Shown here in pieces: positions 8,549 through 58,069 of a stretch of DNA of 58,069 nucleotides (position 1 is its first letter; each line of letters begins with the position of its first letter). The position numbers and the translations under genes were made by a program. Below the pieces are notes generated by a model. That model made no database searches and was not told where the DNA came from. It saw nothing but the letters and a program-made list of their open reading frames with translations. The DNA is from Perkinsus olseni (Eukaryota), in the NCBI GenBank assembly GCA_013115125.1, contig JABANN010000170.1, positions 1 through 58,069 of the forward strand. The letters run 5' to 3'.

Positions 8549-11146
8549 ATGCACGCCTCGATCGGCCGTGGAGGTCTCAAGGTTGCGGCTGAGGGGATTT
8601 CAGTCGACCGGATTGCGTCGCTGGGTAGCTGGGTGAAGGAGTGCCATGAGTTGTATCTCAAGAAGGACGCGCAAGCCGTAAGCTACCTTCATCCGTCGGG
8701 CAGTATACGGACTAGAACTCATTCGTCATTTGACACTGACAAACGGTGTATCGCTGCCTTCCCTTCAGCTGGCTCGACGGGCTCCTGAGTTTCTCGAGCT
8801 GACTCCCTTCCTTCGCGGCTACGAGCTTTCGATGCTAGCGAATCATTTCGCCATGATCAAGCTGCAGAGGGAGGAGTTTTGGTGGGCAGCTTTCTTCTGT
8901 TACCTTCCATTGCGAGTACTCCGCCGCCAGTCACGCAGTGCTGCTGGTCTGTTTCCCAGCTCAAGGCTCACCTGTAGGCACGCTTTGGCCAGAAAGTTGA
9001 TAGAAAACGGGTTGCCAGATCCGACACCAGACGATGTCGCGCTGATATCAGATGCATATGGCAAAGCTCAGTGCTTTAGCACCGAGGTCTGCTCCGTATC
9101 AGTCCCCACTATGGCGAGGAGCACACGATCTTACACTCAGGTCATGAGGCTGCTGGCCCAACAGCTTTCTGTGATAGAGAGCCGGTTGGAGGCCTATCCT
9201 CTGAGTGTTCTGATGATGTCCTTGGCGAATATGGTTGAGCATCGCGAGGATAGTAAGCAGCTGCTCGCTCCTGGGTTGCGGTCTGATGCGTTTTAGCGTT
9301 CCCATCATTGAACTTGAAGGGGGAGAGCGAATGTTCGATTCGCGAATTGGCAGATGCTGCATCCGCTGTCCCTCTCAACCTACAAGCGCTCAACGTTTTC
9401 AGATCGGCTCGCCCCGCGACCTCGTCAGGGATTTCGTTCGGCTGCTCGGGCAGACGCAGACGACATGATTGACCTGTTGGAACCGGTCGCCGCGTGGGTG
9501 ATCAGAAATGATCACACACTCTCAGCCTTAACATTAACCTCGATCCTGCAGGGCTTCACGAAGCTGAGATACACTAATACAGCCTTGTACCGTGTGAGTG
9601 ATGGTGCAATCTGTCATGACTGATCGGAAGTGATTGTCCTCTCAGAGTTTGGCCGCAGCCACCCGGCTGTTGGCCCCACAGATGTCGTTTGAACAAGTGT
9701 GCGCGAATTTAGCATCCTTCAACAGGCTGGAGAGGCACGACCGACGGGCTGTAGGTTCTTCAACGAGATCTAGACACTGCTATGTTTACACTGTGGCTGC
9801 CGCTACGTTTCTGAAATTCACTCGCTGATTAAAATGAAATCTGTATTGCAAAGCCTTCTGCTGGAGTTGAACCGACGACCTCCCGCTTACTAAGCGGGTG
9901 CTCTACCAACTAAGCTAAGAAGGCTGAACCTTCGGAACATGTATGTACCCTCGCTGTGCCCAGATAATAGCTCTACTTGATCGGCTTGACGAGCTGCCCG
10001 AAGATGAGATGATGGACAATGCTTTCTTGCCATCGTTAGTTCATGTGGTTGGGAAGTTGGGATTGAAAAGTAGGTCTGTTGTCACCGACCAAGTTGCCGC
10101 TCTCCCATGTCTTCCAACAATGAACAGCTCGAATATTATTGCGCGATACCAGCGAAACTCCTCACTAGGTGTGAGTCGTCCAGGGAATCCCCGAAATTCG
10201 AGTATGTGGTCGGAGCGTTCAGCCGTACTTTGGTCTCAGACCAGAGCGTGCAGAGAACCATATCGAGGAGGCTGCCGGGTTGCATGACTGACATGAAGAT
10301 CGGCGAGCTGATCCGTGTGCTCAGCATGTTGCCAACAGTCGTGCATCGACCCTCTGCGACGTTCCTCCACGAACTTTTTGCTCCGAGCGCGAGATGCCAA
10401 CGCGAACTCAGGCATAGTCATGACCAGACCATCATCAGCGTCATCGTTGAGGCAGCGTAACGGAATATATCGCCAGTGCTGCTGCTTTTACACTTCATCC
10501 TCAGTAATCGCCTCGGCTATGATTCCGAGCCAGAATTCTGGAAGCTTGTGATGGAGACTGTGCCAGGGGAAGTGGCAGCCAACCAGTGGCTCGCAGAGCC
10601 CTTTGTAAAGTGCTTTGTGGCTGTGGCGAAGCTCGAGGTTGAGAATTACCCGGTGGAAGTCCCTCAGTTCTTCGAAGTGATGGAACCAATGATCGTGAGG
10701 GAAATTCCCGGATGGTAAGCTCCTAGTTGTAACGTGGTACAAAACAACTCTGCGGATCCGTGCGCCCTCATTTGATCCGAACGCGCTCGAATTCTAAGAT
10801 CGAGCGAGACAGCTGTTGCTGGTGCTTCAGGAACACCACCATAGTCACGGCTCTGACATGGGGACTTCTATGGCGAAAACAAGCATTGGACCCTACCGTC
10901 ACGGCCGTCCTCCAGTTCGCGCGAGAGAACATCACCGCCTACGACAAGGCCGACGTATACCGGTTGATACGGCTATTGGCTTCCCTCGGCGACCGTCCTC
11001 CATGTGAACTGGCACCGCTCATCGAGATGGTCAACCAGCGAATAGACCAGGGGCAGTTCTTTTACTCAGAATACCAGTGCAAATTAGTGAAAACCTTTTG
11101 TGACAGATTTGATTTATATGTTCGTTGCGATGTTTCTCAGAGATAG
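8549..11146 (+). CDS. Alpha-helical repeat protein (HPR/FASTK/RAP-associated type); paralog 2 (start may lie near 8425)
   Basis: RRAPEFLELTPFLRGYELSMLANHFAMIKLQREEFW aligns with paralog 1, with the same intron position in the FW codon. Further units: LSALTLTSILQGFTKLRYTN, MSFEQVCANLASFNRL, YDKADVYRLIRLLA. Confidence 0.6.
9852..9924 (-). tRNA. tRNA-Thr(AGT), second copy, intronic, with a T-stem mismatch (possible pseudogene)
   Basis: 71/73 identical to 8094..8166; T-arm GTCGG TTCAACT CCAGC has a C-A mismatch; antisense within intron 9751..9963. Confidence 0.88.
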
Positions 11147-11303
11147 TAGTTTCTGAAAGTGGGTTGAGTCGAGTTTGGAGTGGTATTAAGGCGAGCGAGG
11201 TTTTTTCTTCGCTGGAATTCCGAAAGCGCAAGTTGTTTAGCGCTCGCCCTCAATGCTTCGAGGGCTGTTCCACGTGAGCACTTCTACTCGCACTGTCTTT
11301 TAG

Positions 11304-12866
11304 ATGAGTTTTGTATCAACTGAACTCAATGGGGACATAGACGAAGGCCATCTTCATAGCAAGTGCTGGCTTCAGGGCCTGGCGGGCTGGCTCATGGTAG
11401 GAAGTCGTCCACAGCCACCTGCTCTTCGCTGCTACGAGGGGCGAGACGGCACCGTCAGGCCGTCTTCTCTCCTACCGGCGGACTCATTAGCGACCCTTGT
11501 GCTGTCTCAGATCATCGGGCTTGTCTTCGGTGCTGTATTCAATTGCTTCAGCTCGGCCAGGGCGTATACCCACCCCTTCGCTCAGTTGAATTTGGAGGCT
11601 TTTGAGGTACCAATTAGCTTCACTCATCATTATAGTCATAAATGTAGCACATTTACCGTAGGACTTTGCTGACTTTACTAACGTCAGCATCAAGCACATA
11701 GAGTGCGCCGGCTTAGCGGCGACTGCCCTTTACATCACAGCCTTCGGTAGGCCACGGGTCAGCTTCCCCTCGCCGGACTGCTGCCGTTTGATCTCAGCCG
11801 TGCTCTTCCGAGCTGTGAACTCTGTCTCCTCTTCCTGGAGGGTCTCTCTCATCGCCATCACCGGCCTTGCGTTGGCGGTGCATGCCTTCGGTGGATGGTG
11901 TTTGTATGAAACAGCAGATGCCTTGCTGAGGATTGGTAATGCGATGGAGACGACGCTATCGGATCTGCGCGATCGACCCTGTCGTGATGTGGTCGTGCGC
12001 ACAGCGGTCAAAAGAAATAACGAGAGCTCTGGCTCGATCTTGTTTCCAATTCTCATTTCTTGTCAGAGGAAAGCAAGAGCGTCGAGGTCGGCAACCTCAT
12101 CCAGGACCCCGCCTTCAACCTTACCAACGTCACGACGTCACTGCAGTCCTTCGCGTGCACTTGGGAAACTGGCTCCTGCCAGCTAGGCTCTTCACGCGTC
12201 CTCAATTCAGCTTGCTATATGGGGACAGCCACGGCGCGGCCGGTACGCCTACCTACCGGTCAGCAGACACTGGATCGAATCCCTGTTCAGATAGCGTGCC
12301 CTGCCCTCGCGCTAGACAGAGGCAATGCTACGGGCAGCTTCGACGGTGTCCTCGGACAACTCTGCGGGCCCCAGAGTATCTTCGCTGTTAACGGCGGTCT
12401 GCTTCCTGAGCCCTCAACTCATTGTGTCCAGTGTGATGCTGCAGCTGTTCGACAGGGTATAATGGACCCTGAGGTCACGGCGGCTGCATGTGGTTGCTTG
12501 GCGGGTGAGAGTCTACTCGAATAGCGTCCGGGAATTGTGGTGATCGTCTCACGAGGCTGTTTCAGGTGTTGGTGACTTCTTCACGTTATACGGTTACAAC
12601 TACTTCCTTGCCATGTTCAGCATAGGAGCTGTCGGCTTCTTTATCGCCTTCACCGCCCTTGTAGTTTACTTGCTGGTGTTGATCATAATGAAGTAAGTCT
12701 GGGCTAAACACTCTCCATATTCTGAGTTGTTTCGGGAATTTCTTCCTGTGTTCTGAAGAAATCCGCAACAGCGTGATTTTGTCTCAGGTCATACGGAGGC
12801 TGGCACTTCCATGAGTGGTTCCGAGAAAGTTCCGATGATAGCGATTCGGCCGAGGATGAGTTCTGA
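11304..12866 (+). CDS. Tetraspanin-like membrane protein with a large Cys-rich loop (multi-exon)
   Basis: N-terminal hydrophobic segments (IIGLVFGAVF, LAATALYITAFG, LIAITGLALAVHAFGG), Cys-rich loop with NLT/NVT/NAT sequons, final TM YFLAMFSIGAVGFFIAFTALVVYLLVLI, acidic tail ...SAEDEF*. Confidence 0.5.
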
Positions 12867-14556
12867 GCTGTGAATTTACCGATAGAAATTTACGACGTTG
12901 TTGACATGCTCATGTGCGAAGGGTGGATAGAAGATCATATCAAAAATTTATCAGTTTTTTCTATCACGTGTTGGTGGCTTTGGACCGTGTTATGACCCAA
13001 CTAGCTGGCGTTGAGTTTTCTGAGTACTCCAGAGTGGGCTATCATTTGCTGTCATTATGATTGTGCGAAGCGAGGGTAGAATAATCGTTCATTCACAAGT
13101 GGAGCCGGGAGATCTCCTCGGCCAGTGTGCATCGCTCCTATGACGCCACACGTATACCCAGTCGATGGGCACGTTGGCAGAGTCATCCTCCCGTCGGAAC
13201 TTCCGCACCACATGGGACCGTCGTTAGAGAGCTATGAAGGGCTACGAAACAGCTTGGAAGACCGATACGCGAATACTGCCGCGGGGGTGAGTGCTCGCTG
13301 CCGTTTTTAGAAGGTGGGGCCTACGGTGCCTTGCTGTCAGGAAATGCCCATACCAATGCACAAGATTGACAACCGTGCTGAGCTCCTCGACAGACTCCCT
13401 CATTACTTGGCGGTTCAGTTCACCCGAGACGACCAGCACAGGTTGAACAGTGTAGCCACAAGTACCACTACAGTACTGAAGCTGTTCAGAGTTGCAACTG
13501 AACTCAGATTGTCTCTGACAAACTCGAAGCGGCTGTGAACCAACTTCCGGACAACCGCATGCGAGTGGACCGTATGCAATGCATTGACGAGTACGACGAT
13601 CTTCAGTCCGATCGGCAACGAACCTCCTCAGGGACGGAGTGTCAGGGAGAGATTTCCCAATGTGCACGGCACATCGAATTGGAAACAACTTCCCAGTCAT
13701 CAGAGTTTACAGAGTCGATTGGGACAATCGTATGGTATCTGACTGGACTGAGTACGGTGGGTGGTCTCGGCTGCGATGAACCACCTAACAGGGTAGTCGA
13801 GTCGACTGCCGTGTTAGGGAGTCCACTAAGTCGATGCCAGGCCGTGTCTCTCGGGAATTTTAGGATCCCTCGAAGTGCTGTTCCCTTGGCTCCGGCGTCG
13901 GAGCTAGCGAAGCTACTTGGCGACTTTGAGGGCCTAGCTGATGCGCGTGGGCAACTTCATTGCTCACACCGTGAGTCGTTTGTTCGCGGCTGCGCTTCGC
14001 ACTTGCATGAGCAATGCAACCGTAACTTGCAACTAGTCGTCTAGCATGTTGAGGTAAGATTGGACCATTCCCAGCCGGCAGGGATGGCCTGAGATGTTTC
14101 TTGGGTTTTAGCCGGGATTATCGTGCGATTTGGCAGGTTCACACCATGATGCTGTGTGCCATCCCGTACGGATGCACTTCGAGAAGCTTGACGTTGGGCA
14201 GCTACTGAGCAACACAATTCTCTGCCACTCACTGACTCGGAAATTGGCTCCTGGGCCTCGCAGACTGCGGAAAGGAATCACTGCCTCATGATATCATACG
14301 GTAAAGTTATTCTCTCTTATTCATGAGTTGGGTTCGACATTTGCATTGGGTGACCCGACGAGCAGTGACAGCCATAGATTGCAGTTTGAAGCCAAGGTGC
14401 CAACCTCTCAGCAGAGACGAACAGTACTGAGTCCCAAGTTATTTTACGGTTTACTAAGTTCGGGTTTCTCACTGGTTCTGATCATGGTTTATCATGGTTT
14501 GCTCGCACTCCCACCGTGGGAAGTCGAGCAAACCCGGGGACAGACTTCCAAACAAG

Positions 14557-14643
14557 ATGGCGACTGAGATGGCGTCTGACATGGCAGCCGAGATGGCAGC
14601 CCGGAAGGCCTCTGAAGTGGCAGCTGAAGTGGCTTCCGAAATG
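14557..14643 (+). repeat. Degenerate 12-bp tandem repeat (about 7 units, RTGGCNNCNGAR)
   Basis: atggcgactgag atggcgtctgac atggcagccgag atggcagcccgg aaggcctctgaa gtggcagctgaa gtggcttccgaa; reads MATEMASDMAAEMAARKASEVAAEVASE. Confidence 0.7.
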
Positions 14644-16180
14644 CTATGGGTACCTAAGGTGCCACTCATAGTCTGTGTATGACATACAGTAGTTAGGGTT
14701 GAACAATCCACAATATTATGGTCATCATTATGATGGCATCATAATATCGTGACCATAAACCGCTACCGGGTTTAGTCGGAAGAGATCGAGTGTCGTCGTC
14801 TTTTGTGCCCTTTCGTTATCATAGTAGTATCCTGCGGGTCGCGCGCAGCATCTTGCCTCAATGCAACTTGCAAATTGCAACCTGCTGATGGATTTTGGAC
14901 CAGTGATGCAGGATACGGAAACGCTTGAAATGCAGTAAAGCACATTCCAGAACCTTCACTTGAGTAGCTCAAGCTGAGCTGCCCGCGGCAAAAACCAAAA
15001 TCGATGAATTGACAACGAAGCTCAAAAAGCCCGAGGGTGGAGTTTTCGAGGGTGTATAGTATTGTCACAAGAATTGGTACCAAATGAACGACTCGTGTCT
15101 GTTAGACAGTAACTCCGCAGTGGAATGACATCATGATGATGTCATCATCAGTGGTCATCGTCATCATCACCTCGTTGATGATGATTCAACACCAACGAGC
15201 TCAGGTTTAAGCCCCTCAAGAGGGCATATAGGCACACTCTCGTTCCCTTGAAGGGGGTCCCTTCCTGTCGGCTATAAATTATAGCTTATATTCGACGAAG
15301 AGTCAGTGTACCAACGAAGACGAAGTGTACAGCTTCATGTTGGGGAAACTGGATTCTCTGGTCCAAGTGTTAACATCGAGCGATCGGAGTCGCGACCTCA
15401 GGGACGCCGTGAACTCTTGCTTTCACGACGCTCACCGAGGAGCTCTCTCGGCATGCAGTGAAAAACTACCTGGAGTTCGTAATGGTGAAAACGAGCATGA
15501 GCATCCATTTATGACCCATAAATAACCACAAATAAGCATATTATCGTTTAACCGATAATGAAGCTGACCGTCCCAGAGGTCCCCAACAATAAGGGTGGAG
15601 AAGAGCTCCGATGAGGCGCAACGTTTTCAGGATACCCCGGTCTCAGCCACGGATGAGGAGGATTCACTCGCTCAACTTGACGAAGAACTCGGTCAGTGGC
15701 ATTACGGCTCGTCGATAGGCTATAATAAAAATGGGGGAAGGGAAGAGCAAGTGGAGAGAGACATGATGCTGAGGCTTGACCCAAAAGACTACCTGTTTTG
15801 TTCGATGTCTCTGTGAACTTGTAGGGGGTCACAGTTCTCACCGAGAACAGAATACGCCTGTCTTCTCCTTATGGACTCTGCGTGCGGCAATCTGAGCTCT
15901 CTCCGGTTGCTCGCCTGGTGAGAACACTAAGAGATGAGCACGCGAGGTGGTTCCAGAAAAATGGCCGGATTTGTCCATCGTCTCTTACAGTAAGAAATAA
16001 TTTCAGCCACGGAACTTCTCGGCGACCGGAGACAACTCAGATTGCTGCAGAAGGAAGAGAATTGTTGCAGGATAAAGATTATAGGGTTCTTGCGTATTTT
16101 TCGAGTTATGAAATCCCATCGAATACGGGAGTGCGGAGGGAACCGTAATTAGCGCCGTCGGCCCGTTCGTTTTCTGGCCA

Positions 16181-16246
16181 TGATAACCCCAAAAGTTTTG
16201 GGGTTATCAGGTCAAGTTGGGGGAAGGCGTTTTGGGCCAAAACGCC
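16181..16246. repeat. Two adjacent perfect palindromes
   Basis: tgataaccccaaaa-g-ttttggggttatca (14-bp arms) and ggcgttttgg-g-ccaaaacgcc (10-bp arms). Confidence 0.85.
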
Positions 16247-17003
16247 GTCCGACCAAACTCGGTGCCACCAATGCCTCCGTCGTTGATCCGTTGACCCTCA
16301 GAAATTATCGGCCCGTCGAGAAGAACCACTCGACAATCGCAGTCGGCCTCAGCTTCACAGCCTTACCCGTGCCACGTCTTAGGCACCATCGTGTTGATTT
16401 ACGACTGCTATAGCTACAGCTACGTCTTAGCTTTGCAGTACTCGAGACTGTCGGCATGGCGCCCGCGCCCGCATTGTGTCGCATGTCTTTTACCGGGGGC
16501 ATCCCTTCTTACGCGGCATTTCACTCGTGCTACAGTACTAACGTCCTTCCGCTACACAAGAACGTCGCAGGAATAGCTTCCGAGTCAGAAATTCCGTATT
16601 TCGCGCCCGCTTCGACCTCGTGCTTTAGATTATTTAGGTACACCACCCCCTGGTTTCAATGTCGGACCGTGGTGTGGTTACCACGTGGTCTGGCCAGTAC
16701 TTTCCTGATCGCAACTAGGGCCCGCCTGACCGTTGACTCCACAAGTGTGACCGCGGATGACTCGACGGCTTGCGCCCCTTCCACGCTTGTGGCCTGGACA
16801 GCGGCCTAGATTGGAAGTACGTCAGCGTCTTGACGACATTCTCGATCAGCGATGGAAGCTATGTGATCGAACTGAGTCCAGTCGCGCCGCGTCGGTTGCT
16901 ACGCTAGCCGGACAACGGTACTCAGAAGAACGCAATAGTCATGTTGATCATCATCCACGGGATGAGGTTGATCGCATCATGCACAGCATGGCTGGACAGC
17001 CGG

Positions 17004-18675
17004 TTAGCCGACCTCGACATCAGTCCCATGTGGGGCGATCCCGCGAAGGGAGGGCGTCCTCTCCATCTCCTTCGAGGTCAACTCCATCATCTCCAGGATG
17101 TTCCTCGTCCATGTTTGCAGCACCTCCGTGTATCTGCCATAAGAAATTCCGAGGCCATCCTAATAACAATAACGACCCTCTACTCGTCCTCAGCAATAGG
17201 GTTGAAGTATTCGAGGCACTTCTCCCCCTCGATCGCTCCGAAGTCGGAAGACGACATAGTCGTCAGATAAGTGACGGGAGAGGCCCTCTCCTGCTTCCGC
17301 TCCCGGTATCTAAGCCAAAGCAAACCATCGACGCTGAGAGTGTCGACGCAGAGCTCTACTCTTCATGGAAGACCCCACGATGGGTTGGGTCGGAGTAAAC
17401 CTCAATCGCATAAGCGAACTTAGCACCACGACCGTCCTTGAAAGCATAGTCCAGGCTGGAGCCTGGGGCGCCGTGGCCGATCTCCAGAGAGGCTTGCCCT
17501 GACCACACGAAGAGATTATGTGGTACAGAGCGAAGCGATGGACACTACCGGAGGGGCATTGGCAACCGTCATCGGCCACCCTGTCAAGAACGCTTTCGAG
17601 AGCACCCGCGGCCCTAGGGTGAGCGGATGGGCTGTAGGCGAAGGGATAGAAGAGGCCGAGCATTCCGGAGTGGACGGATAGGAAGAAGTCGGGAGAGGTC
17701 TTGTCAATCAACGAGCGAAGTATCTGATGGAAAGATACCCAACCAACTCATGTGACGACCCCTGCCTTGGTTTCGGGCTCGCTGAATTGAGCAGGTCCTG
17801 AGTTTTCCTCGACGGAGCGAAGCTTCGATGACCAATGGGCGGGGCCGCCGAAATTCCTATTGAGATCCACGCCGTTCTCGTTGCCTATGAAGCGATAACA
17901 AGCAGACGCAAGGGCCTTCTCCTGCCGCACCTCGCCAGCACCACTGCTCTTCCTCCATAACCAACCCTCTGCCGGCCTCGTTCGCCACCGGCACAATCGC
18001 CATTGCTCTCAGCGCCGCCTGATGAGCAGTGATGACCAGAGCTGGGAGGATGACCCTCTCCCCACCTCAGTGAATGGCTCTCCAGCGGACGCCCTACCCG
18101 AGCGAACCTCGCAGACTTTTCTGATGAATTGCAAGGCTATCTCGGAGGATATCAGTTCCCTGCAAGGGAGGCATCAAGACGAAGAGAGCTCGAGAGGACC
18201 TCACCGGGCATGCTCTCCGAACACGAGAAGGGACTCTCTAGCGCTCTTTTCCTGATGCTTTCCAACATCCTCGAACCGTACTACCGTCATGACGGTACCT
18301 GAGAGCGTACGGTACGTCATGGTCGAGGTAGCTGACGAGTGCTTCACTCCGGTATGGGAGACTTCGAGAGCGTTCTCACGGGCGATAAGTTATCGCCGAG
18401 GAATGAGTGTTTTGGCGACGAACTCGGGCCAGACAGAATCATAAAAGATTGAACTACTCGTAAGTTCGTCTGTGCAAGAGGTCGGGCGACTCACCGTGCA
18501 GATGCTCCTGTCCAATGGTCATGCCAGGACAGACACTGAGGAGGCTCTTTAAGCTCGAAATGATATCAGTAGTGCTGTGATAGAAGGGCGGCAAGGGAGA
18601 GGCTTCGACGACAGCCGCTACGGCGGTGCTGAGTAGTGCGAGACTAACGACGAGGAATTGGGCCCATGGAGGCAT
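17004..18675 (-). CDS. Secreted M14 zinc carboxypeptidase (multi-exon)
   Basis: Signal peptide MPPWAQFLVVSLALLSTAVAA; HxxE motif VFGEHAR/ELIS; NENGVDLNRNF; GPAQFSEPET; FLSVHSG; GSSLDYAF; YAIEVY; stop TAA 17004-17006. Confidence 0.9.
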
Positions 18676-18759
18676 ACTGATGGCTGAGGCAGGAGGAGGT
18701 TGAGGAAGTATTACCATTGACCAACACGATCCGCCGCTTGATAGGAAAAGTGCACGCTA

Positions 18760-19350
18760 GAAGTGATAACAGTAGGAGTGATGGCAGCAGTAGCTTGTAC
18801 TGTACTACGTATGGCAGTAGCAGCAGGACACAGTTGGGACGATGACGATGACGTAAAGCAGAAGACGTTGACTGTGAGCATGCACGGAGACGACGAGCGT
18901 GAGGGGGAGCATCAGAAGATATAAGCACACAGGTTGATGATGATGACAACCCTCGAGTCTTTCTTCTCACGCCAAGTTACTGGAGTAATGATAAAGGGAC
19001 TTATCTACAGCACATGCTACATAGTGAACGCCCATGGGCCGCAGGAGCGGACATGAGACACATCGGGAGAAGAAGGAGCAGTTGAGAGTGACGATGATGC
19101 TATTATTAATGTTATGGTATAGCGAGAAACAGCAATGCTACAATAGCAATAAGGGATAAGATGATGAAGCACAGTTCCGTGAAGTAGTCTTGTTATTCAT
19201 CGTACAGTGGACACTGCCGCTAAGCGTATCTTAGGTTGATGATGGTAGCTCACAGAAGTACTGTAATAGCGGCAAGTATCAGTAGGATTGGGAATTACCA
19301 GGAAGAAGGAGGAACCTGGCAGTAGCCATGGTAATGGCGATGACAAAGTC
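18760..19350. repeat. Low-complexity trinucleotide-rich intergenic/UTR tract
   Basis: Mixed gat/gac/agc/agt runs; no coherent ORF. Confidence 0.5.
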
Positions 19351-19406
19351 CCTTCCGGCTCACACGCTGAGTGAATGAATCCTTATTTCACCGTTTTTGT
19401 TCCCGG

Positions 19407-22400
19407 TCACCCAACGCTGCTGACACTACTAGGTCCTGTTGTTTCGGTCTTCTCCGACAATTCTCCTGACACAGTCCAGACTTTGCTACGGAACCCTGAG
19501 AGGATGAGCCTGCTACCTGTCTTGGAAGCAGTAGCGGAGGCAGTCGCGCTCGCCCCAGGCTCGTTTGAGGCACTGGCAGGCGACGAGGGAAATCCTGCTC
19601 GGCGTGCCGCGACCCATACAGTAGGGGTAGCCAAACCATATCTAAACATAGTAGACAGGCACTACGCGCGCGCCCGAGCGATCGATATCGGTTATTACTT
19701 CTGTCCCCACCAGCCACCACACTCGAAGCTCCTTCGGGCATTACGGAACGCTGCGGCAACTGCTGGCCACCGCCATACCGACTGCCCTAGGTTGACGTAG
19801 TCGCCTGATGAGAGACAGTAGCGGCCGCAGCAGGGGGAAGGGGGCTAACGAGAAAGGCAGCCGACTAGCAGCTGTTTCAAATAGAAGAATAATAACACAA
19901 ATCCGGATACTCATAGTCATTGCCTCATAGATATATGCTTTTGGCGACATGCCAGTTCGCAAGGGGCTCTATCTATCATAAATGATCCACAGGTTGATTT
20001 CCCTTTATTACCGTTAAGGGCGAGAGGGTCGAGGATGACCATCATGTCAGTAGCGAAGCGTGAGCTCAGTATCGGGTCCTCCGACCTCTCACAGAAGTGC
20101 GAGTGTGCCTCCGCCGCCACCGGCCGGATCGCCAGTCTACTCGCCGAGAATGACCGCATGCAAGTGCCTGTGAGAGTAGCGTGACGAGTGGTACTAGCGT
20201 TCGAGCGACCTACCATCAGACAGTATTAAATTAACTCTATCCCGGAATTGCCGGCTAGGTTCGACATAAGATTCCTCCACGCTGGGGTCCTCCTCGCCAC
20301 CATACCAATATAACATACTCAGCAATAGTTGACCCAAAGATACGTTGCGGTGAGAAGCATTATTACCATAGAATTGATTAAGGAAGGATACTACCATGAG
20401 TACCTGATGGTGTGGTATGAGCACCGCAAGGAAGCCTCAAAACTCTCACCAAAGTGTAGCTGCTCATCCCACCGTCATAAGGGGTGACGAGGCCGTCACA
20501 GACCAAAACGTGTTTAATTACCAACACTAATGGCCGAAGGCAATCATAGTGTTGGCACAGCATCGCTACGTAAGCGGACGTTTCGATACCTTGGACACAC
20601 ACAGCGTCAGCGAGTCGTCTCAGGAATTCCCTTATTACCACTATGCGCTGGTCCCGTGACCGAGATCTGTATCTTCACCGAGGAATGCAGAGGACAGCAC
20701 TCGGAGAATCCACCCTCACAAGTTGAACACCTGTGGTCCATATACCCTAATACCACACCATCCACAAATACTACCATTTCTTCTCGCTTGCCGACTGGGA
20801 TGGTCCTTTACACTGGAGAGTGAGTAGTGGTATCCGAGATGATGCGATAACCACAGGCGTACTCACGAGGGTACCTGGAGCGGAGAGAGCCATCATCACC
20901 AGCCGGTAAGGCCCTTAGGTTGACGGAGAAGATTTCCAACCAAGTCTGCCGCAGCCGAGCAGAGCTCGACAAGACCGCCCGTTCAGCACGCTCAAGATCC
21001 GATCCAAACCGATTGAATGCCCGGTAAGTGCTCGTGCCTCTTGAAAAGATTCGCGATTGATGGTATGGTGAAATTGAACAATGGAAGCGCTCTTAGAGAT
21101 AGCAGGAAAGCTAAAATGGAGAGTCTAACCCGACCTCAGTGCGGGGTCCGATCGCTATTGCTTGTGACGTTTCAAAGCAGCAGCTGAGATCCTCGGAACG
21201 CTGCCAGCTACGATAATAGAAAGCCATCGCATCGGTCCGTGTAAGGAAGCTCGAAGTTGAGGAACGGCAGGGTGGCATGGAGAAGGGTGGAAAGATATTT
21301 CATAGTGGACGTCGGCGACACCGCTCCGTTTTGGAACACTGTAAGACAAGATGCTACCGAGCGAGACAAACCCAGAAGTCCTCTCGCTCATGTGCCGTTC
21401 CCTATGAGCTCTGCTGGCGTTGGCCCTCACTTAGCATCATTCCTAGCGCATCCACGCCCTCCTGATCCCCCCTCTTCTACCTTGGCCCAGTCTCCTCTCC
21501 AAGTGCTGCGCCACCAGATAGAGCAGCTTCAGTCGTTCCTCAGGAGTCGAGGGGGTCTCGTGATTCTGGGACCCTCCACAAGCACTCGAGCTCACCTGTC
21601 GAAGGAACTGAACCAGACGTCTTTGATTTTCCCATACGCCAGAATCGACCTAAGATACCGTCACATCTAGCGCACAGTCTGTGACAAAAAGTATGCCACT
21701 TGCAAAAATGAGGACGCCATGCCACGTGACAGCAGCTGTTTTTGCGATGTGAAGCAGCGCTCGGTCCTTGCAGCTCCCGCCGCTCGAACGCCGTTCTCAC
21801 GTGAAAACCTTTTGCATCTAGCATAGCGGCTCAATTTTTTAATCCAGCATTTTTCCATTACAGACTCCATGAACTGCCTCGACGAAGAGGGTCGCATCGA
21901 AAGAAAAACACAGGCAACTCCTCCCCAAGGCCGCCACCTACTCTGCGACACTCAACGTCACAGAAGGTAGAGGCTGGATATGCCGTAACCTTCCTACTAC
22001 CACCCTGTCACTCACCGAGCTGGGGGAGGAACCTCCGCCCCCACCGCTCCCCCGAGAGCTGCGTCTCGTTGGTATCAACACGAAATCTAGATCACTAGCC
22101 CAGGGAAGATGCAGGTTGTAAGCGTACCTGATGGTGGTGATGCACCGCCTAGCTCCTTACCAGCTCACCAGCGTGAGACTTACGAGCCGAAAACGATCGT
22201 CTTTATCCGGGAGTGGGGGAAATGGTAGGGGTGGAAATTGCCTATCGCATGTTCAATCTGGAAGGCACGGAAATGACCCCAACCGCCTTCAATGATACCG
22301 ATCCCACCTCGTTTGACAGAGTGATGCGCTTCAGGTTGTCACCGCTGATGCTGTAGGAGTCTACAAAGTGCATGAAGAGACCTACGTCAACTGTTACCTA

Positions 22401-23760
22401 AAGGATGGGTCATACTCCGACCGCGCGCCACGAAATTATACCCGCGTTATTACCCTATCGGCCACACTATCAGTTTCAGCGCTCGCGATGCCGCGGAAGA
22501 CTGCATCCACCTTCGCTGACGGAGTTCCCTAAGATTCGGCGAAATCCTTGACCGCGCGCCACTTAATTGCCCACCTCATGGGGACTGGGGCCCTCGGATT
22601 GTGGAGTAGCATCTCCTTCGTGGACGGATCCCTTCCGCTCCTCAATAGAGACAGCGTCACCACCCGTCACCACAGCCACGGACTGCTTCTCATCGGCGTG
22701 AGCAGAGGGAAGAGAGTCTACGATGAAGCCATCAAACCCCCAAGTTCGCCAAAGCCGAACGATCACCGCATTCGGGCACCCGAAGCCTAAGCCCGGCACG
22801 ACCGTTCTTTTACCTTCGCCAGTTAGCCGTGCCGGAGACGACTCCGAAACTACATTACGACTTCCTCCTCTACTACTCGGTCGGCCCGATCTGACAGGGA
22901 GAAACACTCTCCAAAGCCCGGCAGGAAGCACCCACGAGGCCTGAATTAGCGTACCTGTCGCTGTTATTCGCGTCGCTAGCGGCGTCCTCCTGCCCGGTCG
23001 TCTGCTCGGTCTCCGAGCACGACTCCCTCATCGGTGACGGAGAACGGGACACAGACTTCTCGTCTCGGGTGGGGGAAGAGTCACCCTTGTTTCCGAACTG
23101 GGCAGGGGCCGGAAGCATCCCTAATCGGACCTGAGCCAACGCCCGATGAGTATCTAGAGGTCGACCCGCGGAAGATATGATAACCTTGATTGACGCTTCA
23201 ACCTCAGCACGATCTTCCTTAGTCAATTCCCTTCGCTCGTAGGTCGGCGTGTGAGACCCTGAAAGGTGCACTACGAAAGTGAACCCCAGCGAACCCTAGC
23301 AGTACTCTGAAAGCGGTGATTTCGATGGTGGTGGTGATGGTGATGATGATACTGGTGCGACCGCCCTCCGCCGCCTTTCCGGTGCTGGTCCTTAGGGCTG
23401 AGCTCGGGCGTTGAGGAGCCTGCCAGACACTTCGTCTATACCAAACCTCCCCCAACTATTCCCTTCCGAACTAGCAACAACCAATTTTCCCCCGCGGCCC
23501 TCTTAGGGTCTCCAAGGGCCACCATCCGCCTCGAGCCCGCAAGGAGAGGCCCCAGCGTACTGCTACTGCCTCCACGCTATCATCATCGTCTAAACCATCG
23601 TCTCCCGTCTATTATAGTGAAGTAAAGCTACCCCCCTTCCTACCACTGCGATCGTCGCCTCGGTGGGGACGGTTGGGTCGTCGGTGGACGGCGTTATTGC
23701 TGCTGGTGCTGCTGGCCTCGGTCGCAGCGGGAGGAGGGCCTCGGTGGCCGTGGTACGTAC
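19407..23760 (-). CDS. Non-canonical poly(A) polymerase / terminal nucleotidyltransferase, Trf4/TENT4-like (multi-exon, start approximate)
   Basis: Spliced signature IVFGS|YAYNLHLPWASDLDFVL (about 22070-22200); LRPLVLVIKHVLVCDGLVTPYDGGMSSYTL; SLGQLLLSMLYWYG; MVILDPL; NLGQSVWRWPAVAAAFRNA; N-terminal low-complexity region with a poly-His run near 23320-23350. Confidence 0.8.
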
Positions 23761-23952
23761 GCTGCCGCGGGATAGAAATTGTGGACGACGTATTAAATGA
23801 AATGCACTACTACAATGGATGGGATCCAATCGCAACGATGACAAGAACAAATTTGAGAATCGTGCTGACAAATTTAAGCGGAGCGAAGCTCATTTTGAAA
23901 ATTTCGCATCGCGCGTCACCGGTATCCGACTTCAACCTTCTTTCTCGGAGAG

Positions 23953-26900
23953 ATGACTGACAACAGCGTGAGCACTCAGATCGTCTATGCCGCTTCAGTG
24001 CAGGCCCCTTCAGGTCGAACCCGGCGCTTCGGACGAGGGGTCGAAGGAGGTAGTAGAGGAGGTATCTTCGGAGGGGGCGGGTCCGGCTGACTGCGAGGAG
24101 GTTACGAAGTCACCTAAGGAAGGGAGGAAGGCGGCAAAGCCTACGCCGAAGTTGGTAGGGTCTGGTGCGTGGTGAATTGATGAGAGTGACCGTCGGTCAG
24201 CCCCTGGCCCCGATGTTCCTGCCGCCACAAGAAAGGCGTGCTGCGATGAAGAAGAGGGCGGCTGAGCTGGAGGCGGCCAAGGTGGTGGCGGTGGCGGAGA
24301 TAAGTGTTAGTGATAAGCCTCGACGGGATAGGAAGGCAAAGAAAGTAACTGGTAGTGGTCGTGGGGCCGGATGAGGTCATCTCAGAAGTCTATGAAGGCG
24401 GAGGAAGAGGGGCCGCAGGAAGGGAATCAGGAGGGTCCTTTGAAAGGAGCGAAGGACTCCGTGCGAGATAAGAAAGATATAGTAGGGGTTGATGAGTTGG
24501 TTAAGAGGTGGTATCAAAAAGTTGTCATTTCAGAAGTCGAAGAAAGCTGAGGATGAGGGGCCGCAGGAGGGTCCCTTGAGAGGAGCGAAGAAGGGCCCCT
24601 TGGCAGATAAGAGAAATATAGTAGGGGTTGATGAGTTGGTGAAGAGGTGGTATTAAAAGGTAGTAAATTTAGGAGCCGATGGAGGCGGAGGATGAGGGAC
24701 CGCGGGACGGAAAGGAGGAGGATTCTTCGAAGGATGCAGCGAAGAAGGACCCTCTTGGAGAGAAGAAAAATATAGTACCGGATGACGAGTTGCGGGAAAT
24801 GTGGTATCGGTTGTGTGCCAGCCTCTTGCTCCTATGTTCGCTCCAAAGAGCGAACGATTGCGCATCGCGGCGGAGAAGAAACGTGAAAGCGAAGCTGCAA
24901 GGAAGGAAGCAGAAGAGAAGGTCGGGCGGAGGCGCCGGACCACGCGGGTGGGTTTTCTCGCGTGCCGTGTAAATTCGATTTGTCTATCATTTCCGGCGTT
25001 GCCCTTAAGGTGTCGTACGTCTCCGACGACGCATCGGTCGAGGACGATTCTCCACCGCCTCCCCCCAGGCGGAGGAAGCAGGTCGTAGCCAGGGGTGACC
25101 AGCCGTGGGTGACCTCAGGCTGCTTCAGGTGGCCCGAGCAAAGCCCAAGGCCCGCAAGAAGGCCCGGCCGGAGTCAGAGTCTGAGTATTCAGTCTCCGAG
25201 GAATCCACCACGTCCAAGCCCCCACCCCCGCCCAAGGTGGTCTTGACTGAGTACAGCGCCGCCCCCTTGAAGGTGGCCGGCTGGGCTAAGTCCTCGGGCC
25301 CGGTCTTCGGCATCTTCTCTGGCCGCACTAATGGTGAGCTTCAGGACTCAACTCCCAGAGTAGCTAATCTAGGGTCGACTCAAGGAACACCCACAAAATA
25401 TAGTATCTAGGGTCGACCCTGGGATGATTGGGGAAATATGGTATCCAGGGCCCACTCACTCAATCACCCAACTGCTTTTTCAGCCTCTTCCCGGCCACCG
25501 CGGTCGGAAGCCCTAGTGGAAGTCAAGGGCGTCGAGCCCTCCCCCTTCTGTGGCTCTGTTAATTACGATGAGGACGAGGGCCCATCCGAGACTCTACTCT
25601 GGCCAAGACGGCCCAGCCGCTCCCTCCTGGAGGCACCCGAGATGACGACCGCTCACTCGTCCGTAGAGGTACATCTTAAACGGAATCTTCATGTTCATTC
25701 TAGTAAACGATAGGTTGCAAGTAAAACCCCCATACCACCCCTCCCGGTCATCGGTGATGATGAGAGTGCTAACCCTTGCTCGGGCGAGCGGCAGCTGCCC
25801 TGGCCAAAGACGCGACGAGTTGATATCAAAGAGGCCGTGGAAGCGATGATGGTCCCACGGGATGGTCGGCCGTGGTCCGCCCCACTCGAACCGCAAGATA
25901 CTCATCAGTGGCTGGCAGCTCGGGTTTCCCCGGGTACTGTGTTCTGTCTGATGCATGCTTGAACCTTGGATACTCCCTCAGATCGCAGGAGTGCGCATGA
26001 TGATTGCAAGCATTACCATAAGAATTGGAATCGTCATCATCTCCTGCCGCCCTCGGCCCGCCACAAGCACGCCTTGGCGAAGTGGCTCAAGCTGTGGGTC
26101 AAACGGGCGGATACTGCACGAGATCGGCGTCTAATGGAAGCAGCGCCGGCACCGGCAGCAGCGGGAGCACCGAAGCGCTTGCGCAAGGCTAGTGTGAGCC
26201 GGCACGTGTCCTCGCTGGGATTTGAACCGGGGACCTTTTCTTAGGAGGCTGCATCGGCGAGCACGAATGCCGTGGGAGCACCAGAGTAGGCCCGGGTCTC
26301 TATTCTATCTAGTAACAGATGGACCGCGTCAGGGCCGATGAAGCGGGTTGGGTCCAAAAGAAGGGCAGCAGGGCGAGGACCACCGGCAGGCGAGGGCTTA
26401 GACGTCGTAGGGGGGCGGCGGCCTCTAGGGGTGGGCCAGTCTTCCTCATCGCAGAGATGTGCTACGGCTGCGATGGCTCTGTGCTGGTCTTCGAGCCTCC
26501 TAGCAGGAGCCGAGGGAAGAGGGGGCGGCATCAGTCGGATACCTCGGATGCTGAGGGGATTCTCAACGGCCCCACCTACACCCCTTTCGGCTGCAGCGTC
26601 GTCATCACTGGTGACACTGGCTCTGGCAAGACCAGCTTGGTCTACGCTACTGCTCGAGAGGTACTGCCGGTCGTCGGTGGGCTTTGCGCTTGCCTTCATA
26701 GGAGGTCCCCGGTTCAATACCGGGGTCTACCACTATTTCTATGCCCTCTTTTGCTCTCTGACTGCCATGCCATCCCGCAAGGCTTCACCACTGTTGTTGC
26801 TGTGCTTCTCTCAGGCAGGCGTAGCGGTGATTGAGCTATCAGTGGATTCCTGTCCCCCTGGCCACACAACGCAGGTCGGCCTCAGGATCGAGGAGGCCAT

Positions 26901-36267: not shown

Positions 36268-36430
36268 GCACCATATTCACCATAATTCAGAGTGTTCGAA
36301 GGGTTCTAATTCCTCGACTTGCGTCCACGTAGAGTAGCCCACGGACGCACACGAGTTGGTGGACTCTCGCAGATTTTATTTTGTCATATCCAGCTTGCTG
36401 GCCCTCTCCTGCAGCGACCGTCCAACGCAC

Positions 36431-38039: not shown

Positions 38040-38115
38040 CGCGCGGGTTTCGTCGTCAATTTCAAGTCGCAAGGGCCCGACCCTTGTACCGTCCCTTCGT
38101 GTTTTCCCTTCCATT

Positions 38116-45420: not shown

Positions 45421-45449
45421 AGCATCTTACAATACAGTCTACGGTCTAC

Positions 45450-52437: not shown

Positions 52438-53591
52438 ATGGCAATTCACACACTCGGTCCGTATAATGCTGACGACATAGCTGACTCTCCCGCCCTCATC
52501 TTTACAATAATATTCTTCATCCTCGCCTTCGTGGGGTTCTCCTTGATGGCGCTACTGGCCCCAGCAGGCAGCCGATGGCGCAGCATTATCCTGCCGCAGT
52601 TGGCGTCGGGTGTGCTCTATGTGCTCATGTGGTTCATCTTCAACGGCTCCAACGTCTTCTCGGTACTCCTTTTGACGGTACCAGCGGCTGGTCCGGTCAT
52701 TGCGGCTATTTACCTGTCTGTTCGGGAATGCGTCCAGGCGAGGAAGAGAGCGAGAGTTCGGGCACTAACACGAGCGCGGACGGAAATGGGAGAGGTAATG
52801 TGGCCCAGGGCGTTGACTTCTCATTTGCCCACCAAGAGGTCGCCAGTTCGATTCTCTCTGGGATAATTTCTTTTGTCTGTGTGATGTGCAGATTGACGAA
52901 GCCGACACTGATGGAGGAGAAGGTGAAGTCGTGGATAAGCCGCCCAAGCTGCGGGTATGTAGGAAGGGGGATGCAATCAAAACAGCGGGGGTATGCAGTA
53001 GCTTGTTTCTTGGGTCTTGGGCCGAGCGTGTCACTTATCACATTTGGACTTTTACAGACTATTGCCTCGTTCCTGACTTCCCCTCACTTCAAAGTGCCCC
53101 CTGGACGCTCGCTGCGGAGTGGGCACTCGATCTCGTATCTTTGAGCGCGAAGTATCTTTGTTGTTCGTTGTAGCTGAGGTCGATGTCCACTTTGGCTCCT
53201 TTTGGAGAGCCCTCCGCTGTCCTGGGCAACCTGCAAAGAGGAACGACGCAGCGCTTTTACTCAATCTACGCTGACACGGTCGCGCCTGAGGTAAGAGTGG
53301 ACGGCTGGCTTCTTTCCGGGCTTAGTCACTCGGGAAGGCCAGAAGGACCGACGTGGTGTTGTAGGATGATGGGCAGACGGTGTTAAATATATGTCCGGTC
53401 CAAGACTGCACAGTTACCGTGCTGGAACCTGAGTCGTCCAGTGAAGATGATGTAGAGGAAGGCACGCGACTGCCCGCGGGCTCCTCGCCAGGTCATGGAA
53501 AGGTGATGATCGTCGTGCCAGCTGAGTGGTAGGGAATGAGCGAATCGATGCTCAGGCTATGGTCACGCCGATTGACGACACTCACGGTCTG
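52438..53591 (+). CDS. 3-TM membrane protein of an unrecognised family, paralog 2 (3' end approximate)
   Basis: APAGSRWRSIILP...GSNVFSVLLLTVPAAGPVIAA; basic cluster then spliced acidic tail. Confidence 0.75.
52800..52862 (+). pseudogene. Degenerate tRNA-like relic inside intron 52795..52891
   Basis: A-box-like TGGCCCAGGG, then AGAGGTCGCCAGTTCGATTCT (variable loop + T-arm start, B-box). Confidence 0.4.
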
Positions 53592-54891: not shown

Positions 54892-55215
54892 TTACTTATG
54901 TGAACTAGTGTGAAGTGGCGTTTTATGGCTCGTCATCAGCAGGAGGTAGAGAACTGGGCGAGTGAGGTCAGCAGCGCCCCTGTGCATCCATCGATCTCCC
55001 GATGCGAGAAAGTCACCAAGACGACCCAGTCGCCGCTCACGCTGAGCACAATTGAAGAGGGTCGAGTTTACAAAGTAGGTTGGGTGTAGTTGTGCATGCG
55101 TGCGGGATTCTTGTGTCAGGATGAGCATATACCTCTCGGAGATGGATACTCGTTGAAGGTCCACGTCGGCTCGGCACCCGAGCATAAGATACACTTCACA
55201 GTTCATCGAGAGCAA
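54892..55215 (-). CDS. Possible small spliced hypothetical protein
   Basis: 107-aa ORF only; no motif. Confidence 0.2.
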   Translation of the reverse strand: MLSMNCEVYLMLGCRADVDLQRVSISERYMLILTQESRTHAQLHPTYFVNSTLFNCAQRERRLGRLGDFLASGDRWMHRGAADLTRPVLYLLLMTSHKTPLHTSSHK

Positions 55216-55449
55216 TCCTGAACCGGGATCTGTCCAGGGGAGATTATAAGCCCCTCCGTCGCTGTTTAATTTTCAGCCTTACTGGCGCTGTGTAGTTATT
55301 CATCCCTATCATATTATTACCATTGAAGCTTGGCCAAGGACAGGTGGTTCCTTGTAGTAGTCTTTTGTCTCTCTTGCGTTGACCCGTACTTGCGTTGAGG
55401 TCACGGTCCTTGAGGATGAGACCGCTAGGGCCACCACTGGTGGTCTATG

Positions 55450-58069
55450 TCGTCTCTCTGACAGAAGGTTCATCATGATTGTAGTCGGTTGTTGAGGGTG
55501 GTTAGTGCGAGACATAGTGTCTCCACTTCGTACGAGGGGGCGAGGCCCACATCAACGCACTCGGCCAGCAAGTCGGGCTGCCAAAGGAGCGTAGCGTATA
55601 ACGTACTGATGATGCCAGCGAGGTGGTAGGCGTTTATTTCCGGTGATGGCTCGGCGAGGGGCTAAAGGCGAACCGCATTCCCGGAATGAGATTACCGTGA
55701 CGGTCGAGTGCATCTTGGAGGAGGCGAAGGTCCGAGGGGAGAAGGAGTTTACGATAAGCCGGTGAGACGAGAGGCGCAGAAACTGTCCGGAGGCCTCGAA
55801 CTGTGGAGAGGGTGAAGTCATTGATCAGGAACCAAAACGCGAGCAAACTTGTGGCTTACGCCAGATCTCACTTTGGCCTTTATTACGACCGGGGTAGCAT
55901 CCCAGGGTCGATCAAGGGCAGGGATTGGCGTCTTCTGCGCATAGGAGGGAAACTGGATGGAGAATACGTACAGAAGAGACTGCCCTCGGTGAGCCCTCTA
56001 TGGCTGCTCGTCCGTCTATGCAGCCAGCTGTAGGTCACCGCGGCGGGGATAGAGGACGGCGCGCGGCTGAGGCTCGTCTACATCCACGATGACGCTGATA
56101 CGCGCTCACAGACTCCTCAGACGAGCCCAGGGTGCGGAGACCTCGAGGCCGCCTCGTCGGAGCTGACGGGAAGCGCGAAGGGCGAGGAAGGGGGAGAGGG
56201 AGAGGGTCATCACCATAGCCACCATCATCATCACCATCATAAGGGTGCTGTTCCGTTGCTGCACTCATGTGGAGCTTGTTATTGTCGTTCAGGCCAGAAG
56301 CGGCACAGACAGCACGATAGCCATCCCCAGTCCAGCAGCCCCTCCGAGCCCTCGGAAGAGGGAACCACACCCTCAGTGACGAGAAATGAGCTTGAAAATG
56401 TTGTAGAGGACGTCTTGGACGAGGAAGGGAATGCCGACGGGCATGAGATGAAGGAGGGAAAGGCAAAGGAAGAGCAACCAAAGGAAAGCAGTGAGTGCTT
56501 CTGTTCTCTCGCTGATGGCGCCACTTCTGAGTGAGTGGATCTTCTGAGTGAATTGCAGCTTGCCGGGAACCAGAATCGTTCTTCTATCAGAAATATTCGT
56601 TATAAACTCTTCATGAGACACCGTAGTTGTTCGTGTAGCTCATGGTGCTTTCAACAGGACTAGAGCTGGAATATCCCCAGGGCATCTGACCCGTCTTCGC
56701 TCTAGCACTTTGTGTGTAACCTAGCTGCGGTAGTACCGTCATCGTCGTCCAGGTACCAGCAGTCCATCGAAACCGCGTCCTAAGCGGACGAGAGTATCCA
56801 TGGCCCCGGAAACACCCATCAGACGCTCGGCCAGAGTTCGGGGTATTGAACCTGACTTCAACAGCGAGCCGCCCGCCGCGGGGAGTCCTCGGTCGCCGAG
56901 CCGAACGACGGAGATGGAGACGTCCATTGTTGCTGAGGATGGGAAGAGGGATGATCCGGGCGAAGGTGAGAGAAGTGAGATGACGTGAACGCCTTGACCG
57001 GGGATCGAACCTGTGCCTCGATTGGTTGGCTCAAGCCGCTGCTCCAAGCCGCCATTTCATCTTTCACTAAGTCTACATTACTCGCGCCTCTCAGTTGATC
57101 CGGCTAGTCCTGATTCCGGCCACGCGCCGTCAGCAGCAGCAGCCATTCCGAAGAGCTCTTCTGCCTCCGCCGACGAGCTGCCCCAGGGCGTGGAGGAGGT
57201 CTCAAAGGATGTAGACAAGGAGGAGGGGAAGAAGGCTGACGAAGATGGCGAGGATGCAAGAGGGAAGCAGCTGCCGAGCAGCTCATCCGCAGGTGTGCCT
57301 GCGTTGAGTGGGCGACGAGAACGCCCCTCAAGCCGTGGGTTCACCCACCTGTTTTCTTCAGTGGCACCTCGAAGTGCGAGAGGTCGTCGTGGCAGCTCAT
57401 CGAGGACGGTTCCATCTGCGAAGCCTGCAAAGTCTCAGAGAGTCCATGCGGACTCGTCGGAGAGTATGAGGACGGATGAGGGGAATCAGGCTGATTCTTC
57501 CGGAGTACTGAGTCAGCCTAGCGACTCGCGGGGCTCCCTGGAGGGCATCAGAGGTGAGGAGGCGATCGGGCGGGAGCGACACTTAAGTGCTTCGAAACTC
57601 GTTTCACCTCCCGGGTTCATCCCCATGCACCTTCAATTTTCTAAATCGCCATGGCATTCGTACGGAAGTCGAGGCTCGCCCAGTGACCTCTAAGACACAA
57701 TAGGTTGGGGCAGATTAGCATTAGTAAGAATCAAATTATACCAAGCGATCTCAACATTCAAATTTGAACCAAACCGCCGCGTGTTGTGCAATGGTCGAGG
57801 CAATGGTGCGTGCCCTGCGAGAGAAGGTGGGCTCGGTACTCTCCCCTCCTCAGTGTCCTCATCTCTGCCAGTGGCTTCGGGAGGGAAGTATCCACCGGCC
57901 TCTTCTGGCTCAGCTTCCGGCGGATCCTCGGCGGACAGCGGTCCCGATAATCGGCCTCCGGCGCCTGACTGGCTACTTGCGACTCCCCATGGTGAGTAGA
58001 GCTGGGCAACCGTACTGGGGTCGAGGAAAGTACGGTACGGAGTACGTTCCAAACTGTCAACTTAGTACG
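55450..58069 (+). CDS. Hypothetical multi-exon protein: folded N-terminal part then long Ser/Glu/Arg-rich region, probably continuing beyond the window
   Basis: Exons ERVKSLIRNQNASKLVAYARSHFGLYY..., AGIEDGARLRLVYIH, and ORFs 56256, 56800, 57013, 57781 joined by GT-AG introns. Confidence 0.5.
56990..57053 (-). pseudogene. Degenerate tRNA-like relic inside intron 56966..57094
   Basis: Minus strand GGCGGCTTGGAGCAGCGG...GAGGCACAGGTTCGATCCCCGGTCAAGGCG; A-box-like TGGAGCAGCGG and canonical B-box GGTTCGATCCC. Confidence 0.45.

Follow-up and report, generated by a model that had tools for sequence, protein, structure and literature searches.

Where do the new copies of a multiplying tRNA gene family end up in a compact, intron-rich genome, and what is left of them once they stop being genes? 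This question is raised by a contig of the alveolate clam parasite Perkinsus olseni (JABANN010000170.1, assembly GCA_013115125.1), all 58,069 bp of which were analysed and to which every test described here is confined; we call it the window. Its translated open reading frames (ORFs) match Perkinsus proteins: an ORF with DUF7164 is 92% identical to a P. olseni protein, and the membrane protein encoded at ~52.4-53.3 kb is 100% identical to one. Synteny is seen with the P. marinus contig on which PMAR026022, 026023 and 026027 lie. A first-pass annotation had proposed that five introns in four genes of the window hold tRNA sequences at different stages of decay, namely a near-intact tRNA-Thr gene and four relics. 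We find two tRNA-Thr genes and five relics, whose cores are tRNA-like far beyond chance and are unrelated to one another outside the core. Four of the five cores lie in real introns and none in an identified exon, the remaining one being at the contig edge. On balance, we think it probable that the relics reflect birth-and-death turnover of an amplified family of nuclear tRNA genes whose copies last only in non-coding DNA.

The two genes provide the reference against which the relics can be read. ARAGORN, together with Rfam at its gathering score, identifies two tRNA-Thr(AGU) genes (anticodon AGT in the DNA) in the window, both on the minus strand and separated by 1,758 bp. The intact gene at 8094..8166, absent from the first-pass annotation, is situated between two protein genes and scores 67.2 bits with the Rfam model RF00005 and 73.7 bits with our own tRNA covariance model, with all stems paired. 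The second gene, at 9852..9924, had been described as near-intact, and fairly so: two of its 73 bases differ from those of the first gene, and it scores 59.9 bits with RF00005 against a gathering score of 29 bits, and reaches 65.4 bits with our own model, which finds all cloverleaf stems present and a single C-A mismatch in the T stem. It lies wholly inside the intron 9751-9963, in antisense, and a TTTT run follows ~20 nt downstream. The two genes are 97% identical over exactly 75 nt, and their similarity ends at the gene ends (repeat family D7). We read the nested gene as a young copy, probably still a working RNA polymerase III (Pol III) gene running antisense within an intron transcribed by RNA polymerase II (Pol II). 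At 8091-8156, both RNA and DNA contigs break off inside the first gene with differing loose ends, as expected if many copies exist elsewhere in the genome.

Do the remaining pieces derive from tRNA at all? Because short patterns had been chosen after the sites were seen, we built a position weight matrix (PWM) as an independent test, covering tRNA positions 44-65 (22 columns) and derived from 31 distinct tRNAs in two phage records. At a reporting threshold of 16 bits or more, it returned seven sites in the window. These are the two genes (23.1 bits at 8123 and 19.3 bits at 9881, both on the minus strand), the four relics noted earlier, which we label R1 (21.3 bits at 26236, minus), R2 (19.9 bits at 26703, plus), R3 (20.1 bits at 52837, plus) and R5 (18.5 bits at 57019, minus), and one further site that the first-pass annotation did not contain, R0 (18.5 bits at 97, plus). 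The next-best site scores 13.7 bits, the range between 13.7 and 18.5 bits is empty, and below 14 bits the counts equal those in shuffles. Expected numbers of sites at 16 bits or more were 0.22 in 200 dinucleotide shuffles, 0.17 in 60 order-3 Markov simulations, 0.18 with 300 column-permuted PWMs run on the real window, and 0 in the reversed window. None of these statistics rests on whether a site is intronic or intergenic. The pattern AGGTCNNNNGTTCRA, which spans the variable loop, T stem and T loop, has five matches where 0.04 are expected: the two genes, and three further exact 15-nt matches at 26222-26236 (minus), 26703-26717 (plus) and 52837-52851 (plus).

The simplest alternative is that the four noted relics are chance matches to a short and well-known motif, picked by eye. 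Rfam and ARAGORN lend the relics no support, as detailed below, the looser B-box pattern GGTTCRANNCC is expected 1.21 times in the window (it occurs seven times), and a T arm joined to a 7-bp acceptor stem, the structure seen in R2, should arise by chance ~0.095 times per window. Against this stand five non-gene PWM sites where ~0.2 were expected, under four nulls and with a matrix made from unrelated tRNAs, the three extra exact matches to the 15-nt pattern, and the fact that none of the five cores falls in an identified exon. We therefore regard chance as an extremely unlikely explanation. That the pieces are tRNA-derived, as first proposed, is borne out by the excesses of AGGTCNNNNGTTCRA and PWM sites, by the covariance score of R2, by D-arm-like segments upstream of some cores, and by the AGGTC variable loop that three relics have in common with the local tRNA genes.

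That the pieces sit in real introns was part of the original proposal, and it is supported for all five introns; its count of five introns in four genes is also right. Each has GT..AG ends and keeps the reading frame, and four of the five exon junctions are backed by Perkinsus protein models, the fifth by the lengths of spliced contigs. The fifth is the host intron of the nested tRNA-Thr gene (9751..9963, plus strand, 213 nt, GTAGGT..CCCAG, phase 0), and it falls within the stretch 8000-27900 onto which spliced contigs from four public runs were mapped; the runs are not recorded as RNA, yet their contigs are spliced. A piece of a 450-nt spliced contig ends at 9593, the next exons are 105 and 106 nt long, and a loose end of nine letters joins 10069 to 10240. 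By arithmetic, the fit is exact if 9594-9645, 9751-9963 and 10070-10239 are removed. Of the 57 splice joints, 15 are listed, and these do not include any from the host introns.

Two of the other host introns belong to a single AAA+ ATPase gene. R1 lies in the first (26194..26244, plus, 51 nt, GTGAGC..CTTAG) and R2 in the second (26661..26814, plus, 154 nt, GTACTG..CTCAG), and pieces of RNA contigs end at 26193 and start at 26813. P. olseni and P. marinus models run without a break through the protein junction KAS/EAA across the first intron, three Perkinsus models do so through ARE/AGVAV across the second, and both junctions are bridged by protein models of P. chesapeaki as well as of the other two species. 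Models of relatives also place further introns of 47 and 48 nt in this gene, at 26286-26332 and 26407-26454. The interval 26245-26660 was considered as the boundary of two genes, and this was ruled out by the relatives, which show one AAA+ gene; a metagenome scan yielded no relatives of the AAA+ gene exon. R3 lies in an intron of the membrane-protein gene (52795..52891, plus, 97 nt, GTAATG..TGCAG, phase 0), whose junction EMGE/IDEAD is seen in relatives as well as in the protein annotated for the window itself. The intron that holds R5 (56966..57094, plus, 129 nt, GTGAGA..CTCAG, phase 1) has a junction that is contiguous in the sole relative found, P0021. Single-strand folds of the host introns are unremarkable (z -1.0 to +0.4), and a codon-usage map of coding potential over the window failed to separate known exons from introns.

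How much of a tRNA does each relic retain? R2 (26676..26733, plus) consists of the acceptor and T arms only, a 7-bp acceptor stem with two G-U pairs being stacked on a perfect T arm. In place of the D and anticodon arms there are 18-25 nt, with 34 model positions replaced by 18 nt. Our own covariance model, which was made from the same phage tRNAs as the PWM and run with filters off at a cut-off of E up to 10, gives it 24.6 bits (E 3.4e-5, these E-values being rough). Alone among the sequences folded, 26676-26733 folds better than expected (z -3.25), and the minimum-energy fold is a pair of hairpins rather than a tRNA shape. The earlier description of R2 as a D-armless tRNA-like fold is thus sustained by the covariance model and not by the minimum-energy fold.

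In the other four relics, three of the five T-stem pairs are kept, without a good acceptor partner. The core of R1 (26215..26236, minus), comprising variable loop, T stem and T loop, had been described as a tRNA 3' half filling most of a 51-nt intron; the PWM recovers its core strongly, and the reduced T stem makes the label of a 3' half an overstatement. Our covariance model finds R1 at a marginal 13.1 bits (E 0.093) over 26206-26281 on the minus strand, and the part of that alignment at 26245-26281 was rejected as spurious, since this is exon conserved as protein in P. marinus. R3 (52837..52858, plus) and R5 (56998..57019, minus) had been proposed as relics with both an A box and a B box, at 52800-52862 and 56990-57053 respectively. 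To judge the upstream element, a PWM for the D arm and A box was placed at the expected distance upstream of each core, giving empirical p-values of 0.003 for R5, 0.045 for R0, 0.13 for R3, 0.40 for R1 and 0.81 for R2; combined by hand with Fisher's method, these amount to about 0.007. The A-box part of the proposal consequently stands for R5, in which the segment at 57029..57046 (minus) scores 12.0 bits, 27 nt upstream of position 44 where the canonical distance is 36. For R3 it is not significant: the A-box-like segment there is weak, at a distance upstream of exactly 36 nt, the canonical spacing. R0 (97..118, plus), at the contig edge, has a weak D-arm-like segment upstream at 52-72, and no convincing ORF was found around it.

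Two observations concern particular relics. A gene model from another P. olseni isolate, P0015, reads the 3' part of the R3 intron (52842-52891) as protein, seemingly by taking an AG inside the R3 T stem as a splice acceptor, and differs from the window at two residues over 15. The relic is thus present in that isolate too. In the AAA+ ATPase gene, 26222-26236 (minus) in R1 and 26703-26717 (plus) in R2 form a perfect 15-nt inverted repeat, so that the two cores are complementary in the pre-mRNA. The introns concerned bracket three exons, 321 nt in total and in frame, that carry the AAA+ ATPase Walker A motif, and pairing between R1 and R2 might favour exon skipping or back-splicing.

Could the relics be copies of one dispersed repeat, such as a tRNA-derived short interspersed nuclear element (SINE), a miniature inverted-repeat transposable element (MITE) or an introner? 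The identical 15-mer that R1 and R2 share, inverted and ~470 bp apart, would suit such an origin, as would the introner elements reported from the related Amoebophrya (PMC7789003, in its account of introners). The surroundings of the cores point the other way. When the 70 nt flanking each core to either side were compared, no similarity emerged among relics or to the Thr gene (30 comparisons, lowest uncorrected p 0.015), the local Thr tRNA resembles the relic flanks no more than chance would have it, and a repeat search of the contig found no family joining the host introns. Within the contig, the relics have no common body or tail unrelated to tRNA, as a tRNA-derived SINE would, nor are the host introns near-identical throughout with terminal repeats, as introners would be; they share the 22-nt core alone. 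Since no sequence is shared beyond that core, the relics do not form one SINE, MITE or introner family within this contig, and we consider a dispersed repeat very unlikely. The first-pass annotation had already set aside a single SINE family on account of the two orientations and the differing acceptor strands, and the unrelated flanks and acceptor strands bear this out.

A second suggestion of the first-pass annotation fares less well. It held that tRNA genes, or pieces of tRNA cDNA, might help to create introns; in the form weighed here, they would have been captured as filler DNA that then became a new intron. Two details are in its favour: the R1 core makes up 22 of the 51 nt of its intron, and in R3 canonical numbering places tRNA position 1 on the last exon base, with the 5' splice site GTAATG falling on acceptor positions 2-7. 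However, all the host introns except the 51-nt one are 97-213 nt long, compared with 46-64 nt in 11 of the 15 introns of an RNA-verified gene at 18.7-23.8 kb, and thus exceed the usual length by roughly the size of an insert; PMC3101222, where it treats intron length, describes Perkinsus introns as mostly <100 bp. Moreover, the exons flanking the four introns checked are conserved at the protein level in P. marinus or P. chesapeaki, the place and orientation of a relic with respect to the splice sites vary, and no target-site duplication was seen by eye in an unscored inspection. We judge intron creation to be extremely unlikely. The long host introns and the exons conserved in sister species are instead read as insertion into existing introns, followed by decay.

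Turnover within a tRNA gene family would account for these observations as follows. New copies of tRNA genes would land throughout the genome and persist only where the DNA tolerates them, which in a compact and intron-rich genome would largely mean introns. In the five relics, substitutions and internal deletions would have destroyed the cloverleaf, leaving as a recognisable remainder a 22-nt core of variable loop, 5' T-stem strand and T loop, including the B box. We infer that the relics started as whole tRNA genes and entered introns that already existed, and the copying mechanism is likewise a matter of inference. In its tally of near-consensus tRNA copies, PMC3706591 gives 9, 46, 116, 23 and 349 copies for five types in P. 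marinus (543 in total) and calls the tRNA copy number unusually high for a parasitic protist. These counts indicate that tRNA genes multiply in Perkinsus, and the repeated arrival and decay that the first-pass annotation envisaged fits with this published amplification. In the window, there are five relics to two live genes.

Several results weigh against this account. RF00005 at E up to 10 found the two genes and no relic in the whole window, and it found no match in stretches of 121-701 bases at 26150-26850, 52780-52900 and 56960-57100. We take the Rfam null as low sensitivity for partial relics, not as disproof, because its E-values are multiplied over 4,227 families. R3, R5 and R0 are also missing from the 14 matches that our own covariance model returned in the window at E up to 10. 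Nor is there an excess with relaxed ARAGORN, which gives 36 matches at setting ps80 against a mean of 37.4 in 25 dinucleotide shuffles (8 against 6.8 at ps85, and 3 against 1.4 at ps90); the ps80 run reports two of the noted relic sites, and relaxed searches including mitochondrial mode return hundreds of noise matches. The two comparisons with shuffles made within the contig therefore disagree, relaxed ARAGORN giving no excess and the PWM a strong one. R0 and the four noted relics all fall below the gathering score and lack the four stems of a canonical tRNA gene, and since RF00005 and relaxed ARAGORN pick out no relic, none is a cloverleaf. The 51-nt intron is too short to have taken in a whole gene, does not fit simple insertion and stands as an oddity. 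None of the relics has a matched parent tRNA, and the sample is five relics in one contig.

The pattern of decay itself adds to these difficulties. In R0, R1, R3 and R5 the core is as strong as that of a working gene, three of five T-stem pairs remain, and the other arms are unrecognisable. When the local Thr core was decayed in simulation by random substitution, a score of 18.5 bits or more combined with three or fewer stem pairs never exceeded 3.4% at any divergence. The class scoring 14-18.5 bits was several times commoner than that state in the simulation, and it is empty in the window. Plain neutral decay therefore fits badly. The first-pass view that the T arm and B box last longest is correct in that the core is what survives, and it is kept better than the simulation of neutral decay allows. 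A strong core with lost stem pairing points to the retention of a DNA motif rather than of an RNA helix.

Why, then, does the core survive? Binding of TFIIIC to the B box, which the first-pass annotation suggested, would predict exactly a motif kept without its helix. The cores may be maintained by selection as putative TFIIIC-binding sites that yield no tRNA, much as yeasts have extra TFIIIC (ETC) sites. On this account, tRNA gene insertions would have seeded sites that now act on chromatin or on the host gene; it shares its origin with birth-and-death turnover and differs from it on why the core alone survives. The five relic cores score as high as the genes (18.5-21.3 bits, against 19.3 and 23.1), four of the five combine this with a T stem at 3/5, the interval between 13.7 and 18.5 bits is vacant above a background equal to shuffles, and the state of kept core and lost stem is as rare in simulation as stated above. 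The B-box consensus without a working tRNA gene, which is how an ETC site appears in sequence, is present here, with GGTTCRANNCC occurring at R1, R2 and R5. On the other hand, there are five sites, and our search sees only relics that have kept the core, so the pattern is in part ascertainment. The variable loop AGGTC of the local tRNA genes, which we take not to be part of the B box, is also kept in three relics, in a segment that the PWM scarcely scores (0.1-0.6 bits per column), and the R3 core departs from the B-box consensus at two positions, which counts against TFIIIC binding. We hold selection for TFIIIC binding to be unlikely, though well short of negligible. Alternatively, the pieces may have been short fragments to begin with. 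For us, the persistence of the B box is the most interesting open point. Tentatively, and with more doubt than belief, we speculate that tRNA insertions may have seeded thousands of B-box cores in Perkinsus nuclear genomes, many of them intronic, which would be selected for putative TFIIIC binding as a dense intragenic set of ETC-like sites controlling chromatin or transcription, the motif being held while the tRNA body decays; the figure of thousands is an extrapolation from 5 per 58 kb.

Other features of the contig were recorded in passing. Arrays of a 20-nt unit (CAAAATCCAAGGCACCTGAC) at 35089-35175, 35720-35816 and 36201-36267, in inverted orientation and 0.6-1.1 kb apart, resemble the termini of a foldback or terminal-inverted-repeat element. 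A segmental duplication (36401-37542 and 40223-41272, 91-96% identity, ~3.8 kb apart) flanks a glycosyltransferase-61 gene at 38023-39531. The low-complexity N-terminal part of the AAA+ ATPase gene contains three tandem coding repeats of 139-148 nt at 24376-24710.

How does this locus compare with known systems? A close published parallel in pattern comes from Caenorhabditis. Of the 608 tRNA genes of C. elegans, 264 lie nested in introns, with fast turnover that leaves pseudogenes behind (Wang and Ruvinsky 2012, PMC3342880, in the sections that deal with nested genes). The shared picture is one of whole tRNA genes inside introns of protein genes and, as we infer for Perkinsus, of a large family whose copies die fast and leave decayed pseudogenes. 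Unlike Caenorhabditis, Perkinsus is an alveolate parasite with introns of mostly ~50 nt, relics outnumber genes 5 to 2 in 58 kb, and the remnant is a narrow B-box core rather than a whole gene that has diverged. Within the genus itself, the amplified tRNA genes of P. marinus (Kojima and Jurka 2013, PMC3706591) are described as hundreds of near-identical copies. The same paper, where it presents Dada transposons, reports their insertions of 4.7-11 kb at a fixed site inside tRNA genes, with a duplicated target; what it says on tRNA copies and on Dada brings up neither introns nor relics of tRNA. Nothing of 4.7-11 kb interrupts any site here, the relic introns being 51-154 nt long, and both tRNA genes are uninterrupted; no search for a Dada transposase was made.

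The likeness to the ETC sites of yeasts (PMC3395662) lies in isolated B-box sequences that are no longer tRNA genes. ETC sites, which mostly lie between genes, take their definition from measured binding of TFIIIC, whereas the Perkinsus sites are intronic and known here from their sequence. In Arabidopsis, the last intron of GUT15 holds a tRNA-like element that lies in sense and is processed from a Pol II transcript to a stable RNA (Plewka et al. 2018, PMC6152437, in its description of GUT15), while three of the five intronic sites here are antisense and our knowledge of them comes from their sequence. The same source, in discussing nested genes, states that canonical tRNA genes within introns leave splicing undisturbed. 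The introners of Amoebophrya (PMC7789003) resemble the present case in being sequence of mobile origin in the short introns of a Perkinsus relative. They differ in that, as that paper portrays them, they are repeated whole introns with inverted and direct terminal repeats; the host introns here share no such sequence.

Intron-nested tRNA genes and their decaying copies are thus known from animals and plants. We found no published account of either in Perkinsus or its relatives, in a search outside of which supplements lay. The birth-and-death pattern of nested genes is a known one, and the lineage would appear to be new to it. Should two genes and five relics per 58 kb be the density genome-wide, the turnover of tRNA genes would be a major source of intron sequence and of variation in intron length in P. 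olseni. The surviving core turns this into a testable question, namely whether intragenic B boxes are conserved through TFIIIC binding. An answer would say something about the ways in which compact protist genomes live with Pol III promoters inside Pol II genes and put them to new use.

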